64,000 bases of DNA from Escherichia phage BEU44. Shown one piece after another: positions 44,214 to 45,891 of this stretch. The notes beneath the pieces are model-generated. The model saw only the letters and a program-made list of their open reading frames with translations. It made no database searches and had not been told where the DNA came from. Both the position numbers and the translations under genes were made by a program. Position 1 is the stretch's first letter, and every line of letters starts with the position of its first letter. The DNA lies in sequence record OM632670.1. One strand, 5' to 3'.

Positions 44214-44546
44214 ATGAGTCATGAATCCGTAGAGGTGCTCCTAGCTCGAATGGAGGAACGTATGAAGACACTCTTCGAAAATAATGCCCGTGATGCTAAA
44301 TCTCGGCAAGATTTAGATGATGCTGTACGTAACCTTCAACTGTCTATTAATAAGATGGACACTCGACTGGAGAATGTAGAAAAGTCTCTGGCTGAGTCTG
44401 CCCCTACTATTGAAGAGTTCATTACCATCAAACATAAAGTTGTTGGTGCTGGATTGTTTGGTAAATGGGTATGGGCTGGAGCAGGTATCATTATTGGTAT
44501 ACTGGCTGCTGCCAGACGGGAGATTTTTGCATGGTTCGCAAGTTAA
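44214..44546 (+). CDS. membrane-anchored protein (110 aa), possible holin/antiholin-like
   Basis: N-terminal coiled region and C-terminal hydrophobic helix VVGAGLFGKWVWAGAGIIIGILAA; first gene of lysis cluster. Confidence 0.35.
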   Translation: MSHESVEVLLARMEERMKTLFENNARDAKSRQDLDDAVRNLQLSINKMDTRLENVEKSLAESAPTIEEFITIKHKVVGAGLFGKWVWAGAGIIIGILAAARREIFAWFAS

Positions 44547-44794
44547 CCAAACATGTGGAAATGGTTCCTAATTGGAAACGTTGTTGGAAATGGGCATCTA
44601 TTCAGATTAGCACATTAGCAATATTGTTCTTCTCTTGTGTGGATGCCTTATCCAGTTCTTTCTCTGCATTACCCCAACATATCCTCAAAGATATTCCACA
44701 TGGCAATAACATTGCTATAGCACTCTTTGTGCTGAATATTATTTGCCGACTGGTTCGTTTGAAACCAAAGGAGGATTGGTGTGGCAATAAGTAA
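44531..44794 (+). CDS. putative holin (two transmembrane helices)
   Basis: ATG at 44531 (longest ORF from 44465); helices WASIQISTLAILFFSCV and NIAIALFVLNIICRLV; overlaps the start of the endolysin gene. Confidence 0.45.
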   Translation: MVRKLTKHVEMVPNWKRCWKWASIQISTLAILFFSCVDALSSSFSALPQHILKDIPHGNNIAIALFVLNIICRLVRLKPKEDWCGNK

Positions 44795-45407
44795 GAAGAA
44801 AGTTGGTGGTGTTGGAGGAGTTATTGCAGCAATCATTGCTGCTGTATTTGCTGTTGAGGGTGGATACGTTAATGACCCCAAAGACCCAGGAGGTGAAACT
44901 AATCATGGTGTAACTATTCAGGTTGCTCAAAAGCATAAGCAAGAACTAGAGTCGATGTATAACTGGGATGGTTCAATGAAGAACTTAACTCAGGAAATGG
45001 CATCAAGTATTTATTACAACGATTACATCTTGAAGCCTGGCTTTGTTAAGTTTGCAGATGTATCACCGGCGGTAACAGAAAAACTAGTAGATGCTGGTGT
45101 TAATACTGGACCTGCAAGACCATCTCGTTGGTTACAAGAATCTCTTAATGCTTTCTCCAGAAATGGCAAAGACTACCCTAAAATACAAGTTGATGGTAAA
45201 GTCGGTTCTGGAACTCTAAGTGCATATAAGAGCCTTCAGAATAAACGAGGCAAAGTAGAAGCCTGTAAGCTCATTTTGAAGTCTCTGGATGGTAAACAGT
45301 TAAACTACTATTTATCTCTTAATATGCCTGAGTACACTACAGGATGGATTGCTAACCGTATTGGTAATGTCCCTCTGGAGAGGTGTAATGAAGACATCGT
45401 TAATTAA
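44781..45407 (+). CDS. N-acetylmuramidase endolysin (GH108 family) with N-terminal signal-anchor-release-like segment
   Basis: GH108 motif EGGYVNDPKDPGGETNHGVT; N-terminal Gly/Ala-rich hydrophobic segment VGGVGGVIAAIIAAVFAV; GTG start at 44781 with AGGAGG SD. Confidence 0.65.
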   Translation: MAISKKKVGGVGGVIAAIIAAVFAVEGGYVNDPKDPGGETNHGVTIQVAQKHKQELESMYNWDGSMKNLTQEMASSIYYNDYILKPGFVKFADVSPAVTEKLVDAGVNTGPARPSRWLQESLNAFSRNGKDYPKIQVDGKVGSGTLSAYKSLQNKRGKVEACKLILKSLDGKQLNYYLSLNMPEYTTGWIANRIGNVPLERCNEDIVN

Positions 45408-45891
45408 GTTAACTGTATGTCTTTTGGGAGGGGTAGCTCTGGGAGCTACCCTTTTTCTTCTTGGTTCACAACATGGTGAAAAGAAAGTTCAAGCACTATG
45501 GGATGAAGATAAGAAGGAGTACTCAAAAGAACTTGATAGAGTAAAACTGGCTTATGACCAAAAGAATCGGGAACACAGTTATGAAGTCGGGCAACTTACC
45601 CTTCGACTTGATAAAGCCAAAGAGTCTTATGAAGTCGTTATTGATTCTATTACTAACCAGTACAATAGTCGGTTGCTCCAGTCAGAAAAACGAGCCGAGA
45701 GTTATAAACGTCAAGCCTCAACCGGAACCACTCAATGCCTCAATCTTGCAAGCCATGCAGCCAGACTCGACTCAAGTCTTGAAGAAGGCAGACGTTTGGT
45801 TGAAGAACTCAGGGCAACTGTTAGACTCCGTGATAACCAACTGATTGAACTGGGGAACCAGATTCGTTCTGACCGTAAACTGTTTGAATAG
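45388..45891 (+). CDS. Rz: Rz-like i-spanin
   Basis: N-terminal transmembrane helix then charged coiled periplasmic domain; ATG at 45388 with GGAGAGG SD. Confidence 0.5.
45629..45844 (+). CDS. Rz1: Rz1-like o-spanin embedded in +1 frame within Rz
   Basis: ATG at 45629; lipoprotein signal [16 protein letters not shown] with lipobox, then Pro-containing mature region; entirely inside Rz ORF. Confidence 0.45.
   Translation: MKSLLILLLTSTIVGCSSQKNEPRVINVKPQPEPLNASILQAMQPDSTQVLKKADVWLKNSGQLLDSVITN

Follow-up and report, generated by a model that had tools for sequence, protein, structure and literature searches.

The stretch examined here, a window of 64,000 nucleotides from Escherichia phage BEU44 (OM632670.1), carries at positions 44214-45891 what is almost certainly the five-gene lysis cassette of coliphage N4: a pinholin, a holin, a muramidase tethered to the membrane and two spanins encoded one inside the other. 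When the RefSeq annotation of N4 is mapped onto the window, these coordinates begin precisely where gp63 starts and end at the gp60 stop. In megablast searches of GenBank phage records, positions 44100-45950 are 100% identical to Escherichia phages BEU5, BEU13, BEU14 and BEU42, and match N4 (EF056009 / NC_008720) over the full query at 99.6% DNA identity, on the reverse strand of the N4 records. The gene order gp63-gp62-gp61-gp60/gp60a, the gene overlaps and a GTG start are all shared with NC_008720, and the locus is the same. The cassette is already known, the functions of all five genes having been assigned by experiment in the model phage N4.

Compared base by base with NC_008720, the cassette has seven differences in 1,678 nt, six of them synonymous. 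The remaining one is the sole protein change, V61A in the first transmembrane domain (TMD1) of gp62 (109-aa numbering; V39A in the 87-aa form). The other four of the five cassette proteins, gp63, gp61, gp60 and gp60a, are identical to those of reference N4, and gp60 has no nucleotide difference in 504 nt. Since the cassette proteins are nearly identical to the N4 alleles tested, the experimental conclusions of a 2025-26 bioRxiv preprint from the Ramsey laboratory (Awuah et al.; 10.1101/2025.11.12.688109, PMC12642591) transfer directly, and since the locus is that of N4 itself, the experiments proposed in a first-pass annotation of this DNA have already been done. In the preprint, E. coli carrying the cloned gp60-63 genes lyses some 25 min after the cassette is induced. 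The gene order, overlaps, starts, domains, TMDs, lipobox, terminator hairpin and conservation described below are read from the sequence, and the function of each gene has been demonstrated by others on the same proteins (10.1101/2025.11.12.688109).

The muramidase gene, gp61 (44781-45407, + strand), encodes a signal-arrest-release (SAR) endolysin of 208 aa, an N-acetylmuramidase with GH108 and PG_binding_3 domains. Both Pfam matches lie above their gathering cut-offs (Glyco_hydro_108, PF05838, E 8e-23, 81.2 bits against 21.2; PG_binding_3, PF09374, E 5e-9, 36.7 bits against 24.6), the protein also matches the PHROG endolysin family, and its nearest relatives of solved structure are 6v3z and 6v40, muramidases of the TtsA family (E 2e-26 and 1e-22). 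The GTG start at 44781 has a Shine-Dalgarno-like GGAGG 6 nt upstream and lies in a 14-nt overlap with gp62. A search for alternative starts returned no in-frame ATG, GTG or TTG between this codon and the EGGY motif, and the N-terminal segment of gp61 is therefore included only if translation begins at this GTG.

That segment reads MAISKKK-VGGVGGVIAAIIAAVFAV-EGGY. Residues ~8-25 (44802-44855) have the hydropathy and composition expected of a SAR domain, which is a weakly hydrophobic, Gly/Ala/Ser-rich N-terminal TMD with a basic flank: 9 of the 18 residues are Gly or Ala (50%) and three Lys precede them. Directly behind the hydrophobic segment sits E26-G-G-Y29 (44856-44867), by direct reading the EGGY that is named as the catalytic motif in PMC13284979. 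As cited in later work, Stojkovic and Rothman-Denes (2007, J Mol Biol 366:406) purified gp61, an N-acetylmuramidase that is associated with the membrane and is the founder of GH108. The protein complements both the lambda R amber and the phage 21 SAR-endolysin amber. On its own it produces gradual rounding and a gradual leak, like R21, and it lyses cells when expressed with a pinholin (10.1101/2025.11.12.688109). Spontaneous rapid-lysis mutants have been mapped to the SAR segment, for example G12E (10.1101/2025.11.12.688109), whose numbering counts from the GTG start and fits G12 in MAISKKKVGGVGGV. The first-pass annotation had called a GTG-start GH108 muramidase with a Gly/Ala-rich, SAR-type N-terminus, and both parts of this call stand, the former on the start codon and the Pfam matches and the latter on composition together with the SAR behaviour reported in the preprint (10.1101/2025.11.12.688109).

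The GTG start itself is a trait of the N4 species alone. ATG is annotated in each of the ten GenBank relatives (10/10), and among 31 scorable IMG/VR loci only N4 lacks an in-frame ATG before EGGY. One might speculate that a weak GTG start could throttle the dosage of the SAR endolysin.

Two overlapping membrane proteins had also been predicted to precede the muramidase, and these prove to be gp63, with one TMD, and gp62, with two. The gp63 gene (44214-44546, + strand; 110 aa) was assigned from its open reading frame (ORF), hydropathy, a match to phrog_5211 (E 3e-50) and protein identity to N4 gp63. The protein is hydrophilic and helical-looking except for a single hydrophobic stretch at residues ~80-102, a C-terminal TMD that follows a long, cytoplasmic N-terminus of helical or coiled-coil character. 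It can stand in for the S21 pinholin, though not for lambda S105, and is immediately lethal; lysis comes 20 min later when gp63 is deleted, and residues 62-72, next to the TMD, are where rapid-lysis mutations cluster (10.1101/2025.11.12.688109). By comparison with NC_008720, gp63 of BEU44 has the wild-type residue at every reported rapid-lysis position. An S21-like topology would consist of two TMDs, of which TMD1 is a SAR domain, and gp63 has one C-terminal hydrophobic stretch instead. It is a functional analogue of the S21 pinholin and not a member of its family.

The gp62 gene, which encodes the two-TMD holin, spans 44465-44794 in its 109-aa form and 44531-44794 in the 87-aa RefSeq form (+ strand). 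Its product matches Pfam DUF7940 (E 3.6e-13, 50.3 bits against a cut-off of 27) and phrog_1356, 'holin' (E 5e-28). It is small, has two hydrophobic stretches and is encoded beside the endolysin gene, the properties of a two-TMD holin. The annotated ATG at 44531 is preceded by GGGAG and places gp62 in a 16-nt overlap with gp63 (82 nt for the 109-aa form). In the preprint, gp62 behaves as a large-hole holin that triggers late or, with lethal effect, upon addition of carbonyl cyanide m-chlorophenylhydrazone (CCCP); it is dispensable, and it sets free soluble as well as SAR endolysins (10.1101/2025.11.12.688109).

The distal part of the cassette encodes the spanins. gp60 (45388-45891, + strand; 167 aa), the i-spanin and equivalent of Rz, matches the 'Rz-like spanin' family phrog_6197 (E 5e-68), is supported by hydropathy and nucleotide identity to N4, and has an ATG at 45388 that overlaps gp61 by 20 nt. 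Its residues 2-28 are hydrophobic and the remainder is hydrophilic, in keeping with a type II i-spanin that has an N-terminal TMD and a helical periplasmic domain. Wholly within gp60 lies gp60a, the o-spanin and equivalent of Rz1 (45581-45844, + strand, with an alternative proximal start at 45629), in the +1 frame relative to gp60 (45388 mod 3 = 1, 45629 mod 3 = 2). Its signal, …LLLTSTIVG/CSS… (slash, cleavage site), contains the canonical lipobox IVGC at 45665-45676, with the Cys codon at 45674-45676 and Ser, not Asp, at +2, as expected of an o-spanin, and leads to a mature lipoprotein of 56 aa. The same embedded arrangement is found in all relatives, and AlfredRasser, a sibling of N4, has an annotated o-spanin at positions equivalent to 45581-45844. 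An Rz-like i-spanin with an o-spanin ORF entirely inside it in the +1 frame was what the first-pass annotation had described; coordinates, lipobox and conservation all agree with that description, and the lipobox it had asked to be checked is present by direct reading. In agreement, the preprint reports mature gp60a as a 56-residue lipoprotein and finds that gp60 and gp60a complement the lambda Rz/Rz1 ambers (10.1101/2025.11.12.688109). The embedded spanin architecture and its evolutionary rationale have been reviewed by Kongari et al. 2018 (PMC6139136).

The embedded ORF has three in-frame ATGs, at 45554, 45581 and 45629, all of which yield the same 56-aa mature lipoprotein. In Moo19 and the G7C-like phages, ATGs occur only at the equivalents of 45554 and 45581 (MKS…); the proximal ATG at 45629, used in a minimal 71-aa model of gp60a, is N4-specific.

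Might the embedded frame simply be open by chance, with gp60 working alone or with a host lipoprotein? The ORF is unannotated in RefSeq N4 and in most relatives, a Pfam search with gp60a is empty and its PHROG matches are weak (E 7e-4). Against this, only 1 of 20,000 codon shuffles of gp60 yields, in an alternative frame, a closed ORF whose signal resembles that of a lipoprotein. A lipoprotein ORF embedded in the +1 frame is also conserved in 11 of 11 Schitoviridae sampled from GenBank, among them all ten fetched for comparison (Moo19, a G7C-like phage, KP8, JWAlpha, Frozen, QDWS595, RG-2014, Philippe, Zuri and ZC08), that of Zuri being detected only after non-ATG starts were admitted, and the homologous mature peptide (…INVKPKxEPL…LQAMQPDST…LLDSV) is kept, and always embedded, across these diverse phages. 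A crude automatic pass over IMG/VR loci scored 34 of 43 as embedded, 0 as overlapped and 0 as separated, with the nine misses attributed to strict filters. Together with the joint complementation of lambda Rz/Rz1 by gp60 and gp60a (10.1101/2025.11.12.688109), these results make a fortuitous frame vanishingly improbable, and a chance ORF in place of Rz1 was rejected on the codon-shuffle test and conservation.

The assignments of gp61 and gp63 have their own competitors. The N-terminal segment of gp61 could be an ordinary cleavable Sec signal peptide, in which case secretion of the enzyme would be constitutive and its control would have to lie elsewhere. The end of the segment, A-V-F-A-V, loosely resembles an AxA site right before Glu26, and GH108 relatives such as TtsA work in secretion systems, not in classic lysis. 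However, the segment is 50% Gly/Ala with a KKK flank, as in known SAR domains, and the membrane association of gp61, its lysis of the pinholin-dependent type, its R21-like gradual leak and the rapid lysis caused by single acidic substitutions within the segment, G12E being the example (10.1101/2025.11.12.688109), all argue for a retained anchor; cleavage is very unlikely. For gp63, a role as a structural or assembly protein, or as an activator of the endolysin instead of a holin, is suggested by the label 'tail length tape-measure protein' that homologues bear in the Moo19, F22, KP8 and Frozen records, by an architecture that is unusual among holins (a long coiled-coil N-terminus and a lone C-terminal TMD) and by an earlier thesis, which suggested activation of gp61 by gp63. 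At 110 aa, though, gp63 is far below tape-measure size, and complementation of S21, lethality when expressed alone, the 20-min lysis delay upon deletion and the rapid-lysis mutations by the TMD (10.1101/2025.11.12.688109) all speak against such a role. We regard the structural or activator role as extremely improbable, even more so than cleavage of the gp61 anchor.

We are highly confident that these proteins act in a pinholin / SAR-endolysin / two-component spanin pathway with an accessory late holin. In the model we propose, the cassette would be expressed late, from a co-oriented cluster of structural genes. gp61 would be exported by the Sec system, and its Gly/Ala-rich SAR segment would then keep it in the inner membrane in an inactive state, with the catalytic Glu26 of the tethered enzyme placed directly at the membrane face, as gp63, the C-terminally anchored pinholin, builds up in the membrane. 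Triggering of gp63 would depolarise the membrane and free gp61 into the periplasm, where it would cut the glycan strands as an N-acetylmuramidase. The two-TMD, large-hole holin gp62 would trigger much later; it is dispensable and would probably aid exit from lysis inhibition. Once the murein is degraded, the complex of gp60 in the inner membrane and gp60a, an outer-membrane lipoprotein translated from its own start within gp60 in the +1 frame, would fuse or disrupt the outer membrane.

Several points weigh against this account of the locus, or at least qualify it. The functional evidence comes from a preprint on N4 alleles, outside the present analysis, and the gp62 allele of BEU44 differs from the one tested by the single V to A change in TMD1. 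The true start of gp62 may be 44465, 44471 or 44531, and that of gp60a 45581 or 45629. gp63 is unlike the canonical two-TMD S21, so that 'pinholin' is a functional label only. The sequence itself holds nothing that contradicts an N4 lysis cassette.

A close functional parallel is phage 21 (S21/R21/Rz-Rz1), in which a small-hole holin depolarises the membrane, a tethered endolysin is freed and two-component spanins follow; gp63 and gp61 each complement their phage 21 counterpart (10.1101/2025.11.12.688109). The parts are nonetheless different. R21 is of the T4-lysozyme type (GH24) whereas N4 gp61 belongs to GH108, the two TMDs of S21 contrast with the one C-terminal TMD of gp63 and its long coiled coil in the cytoplasm, and N4 adds a second, large-hole holin and lysis inhibition. 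The nested spanins resemble lambda Rz/Rz1, with an o-spanin gene wholly in the i-spanin gene in the +1 frame, a type II i-spanin and a proline-containing outer-membrane lipoprotein, and the pairs are interchangeable in lambda (10.1101/2025.11.12.688109). However, gp60 and gp60a have no detectable sequence similarity to the lambda proteins, fall in a separate family (phrog_6197) and are not homologues of them, and mature gp60a has no Cys except the lipidated one. gp61 shares its GH108 + PG_binding_3 fold family and EGGY motif with TtsA and Sen1395 (6v40, 6v3z; E 1e-22 to 2e-26), although these are bacterial muramidases of Salmonella type 10 secretion systems that serve toxin export and not phage lysis.

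Two terminator-like hairpins bracket exactly gp63-gp62-gp61. The upstream one, T1 (44175-44200, + strand), is supported by folding, by the annotation of phage vB_Eco_AL25 and by relatives. It consists of a 9-bp G+C-rich hairpin at 44175-44196, GAGCCGGGG-AUAC-CCCGGCUUU, followed by UUUUU, which bears out an earlier claim that a terminator precedes the cassette. T1 lies in the 103-nt gap between gp64 and gp63, has its T-run on the sense strand only and folds at a free energy of -16.7 kcal/mol (z -3.5 against shuffles). An automatic terminator scan did not report it despite its meeting the criteria by eye, and it was called from folding and a custom scan; vB_Eco_AL25 annotates a terminator at this position. 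T1 ends 14 nt before the gp63 ATG, and the cassette, portal and capsid genes therefore need either read-through or an unmapped promoter farther upstream. We infer that this terminator may throttle expression of the cassette. Just upstream of the first lysis gene, a non-homologous hairpin with a T-run was seen in 8 of 11 Schitoviridae sampled.

The second hairpin, T2 (45426-45462, + strand), lies in approximately codons 13-25 of gp60 and is supported by folding, by annotation in AL25 and by covariation. It comprises a hairpin at 45426-45456 followed by UUUUUCUUCUU (-19.7 kcal/mol), begins 19 nt past the gp61 stop and covers the TMD-coding part of gp60; both AL25 and SPSP annotate a terminator there. 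Six of its nine core pairs come free because the peptide G-V-A-L-G-A-T-L is codon-palindromic, and for N4 T2 alone 12% of synonymous resamples still form a strict hairpin. The position of T2 is kept with different sequences across the Enquatrovirinae, in N4, Moo19, loci L015 and L017 and a G7C-like group, among which the Rz proteins are only ~57% identical; KP8-like phages and locus L030 have another peptide at the site, yet again a hairpin and T-run. When seven distinct sequences are aligned without gaps, the share of paired cells is 98.7%, against 42-61% in slid controls, both sides have changed in 4 of 11 pairs, and RNAalifold independently predicts the helix. Of 11 Rz N-termini, 4 contain a strict hairpin where synonymous resampling gives an expectation of 0.17, in a test that was post hoc and drew on a small sample of related lineages. 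An Rfam scan of 43800-46200 gave two sub-threshold chance matches only and no family that matches T2, and no N4 late terminators or transcript maps of the lysis region were found in reviews or in the LUZ7 ONT-cappable-seq paper.

These comparisons suggest that T2 may be maintained in the Enquatrovirinae by compensatory changes at synonymous and even amino-acid-changing positions. It is possible, though less likely than not, that T1 and T2 are functional terminators or attenuators that set the amounts of pinholin, endolysin and spanin mRNA; in such a scheme T2 would be an RNA element superimposed on TMD-coding sequence, and ribosomes translating gp60 could counteract it. T2 and the conserved pre-cassette terminator are candidate controls of lysis-gene dosage, a question relevant to the unexplained lysis inhibition and very large burst size of N4, and such control, together with the N4-specific GTG start of gp61, could bear on the unusually long lysis delay of this phage. 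The covarying hairpin inside the start of gp60 is the only element of the cassette that may be new.

A third hairpin, with a T-rich tail, lies at 44825-44846 (+ strand), where gp61 encodes the SAR segment. The N4 version is weak and mostly dictated by the peptide AAIIAA (26% of synonymous resamples form it), and we make no claim for it. Moo19, Frozen and Zuri have stricter versions (3 of 11, where 0.07 would be expected), and in JWAlpha a terminator is annotated at this place.

In its genomic setting the cassette is flanked, by the mapped RefSeq annotation of N4, by gp65, a tail sheath / receptor-binding protein (38676-42824), and gp64, a tail protein (42857-44110), upstream, and by the portal gene gp59 (45900-48191) downstream, all on the + strand, just as the first-pass annotation had it between tail and portal genes. 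From ~34000 on, every large ORF of the window is on the + strand, and the cassette therefore lies inside a co-oriented late structural cluster. Late promoters of N4 are activated by SSB, a protein that binds single-stranded DNA. A sigma-70 scan of 44111-44213, which does not model SSB-activated N4 late promoters, gave no convincing promoter, and the space for one between T1 and gp63 is 14 nt only. Over the comparison interval 41100-48900, the flanks are far more diverged from NC_008720 than the cassette, with 28 differences in the 1,254 nt of gp64 and 30 in the 2,292 nt of gp59. The low divergence of the cassette is compatible with dual-coding constraint, a recombination block, or both.

The complete lysis cassette, including the GTG start and the embedded frame, can be recovered from raw sequence alone. 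Public annotation lags behind. RefSeq N4 (NC_008720) has no gene for the o-spanin gp60a, and homologues of gp63 are widely mislabelled, several records calling them 'tail length tape-measure protein'. F22 annotates just the 3' third of its i-spanin gene, and the GH108 endolysin of QDWS595 is annotated as a 142-aa 'endonuclease' that lacks the N-terminus.

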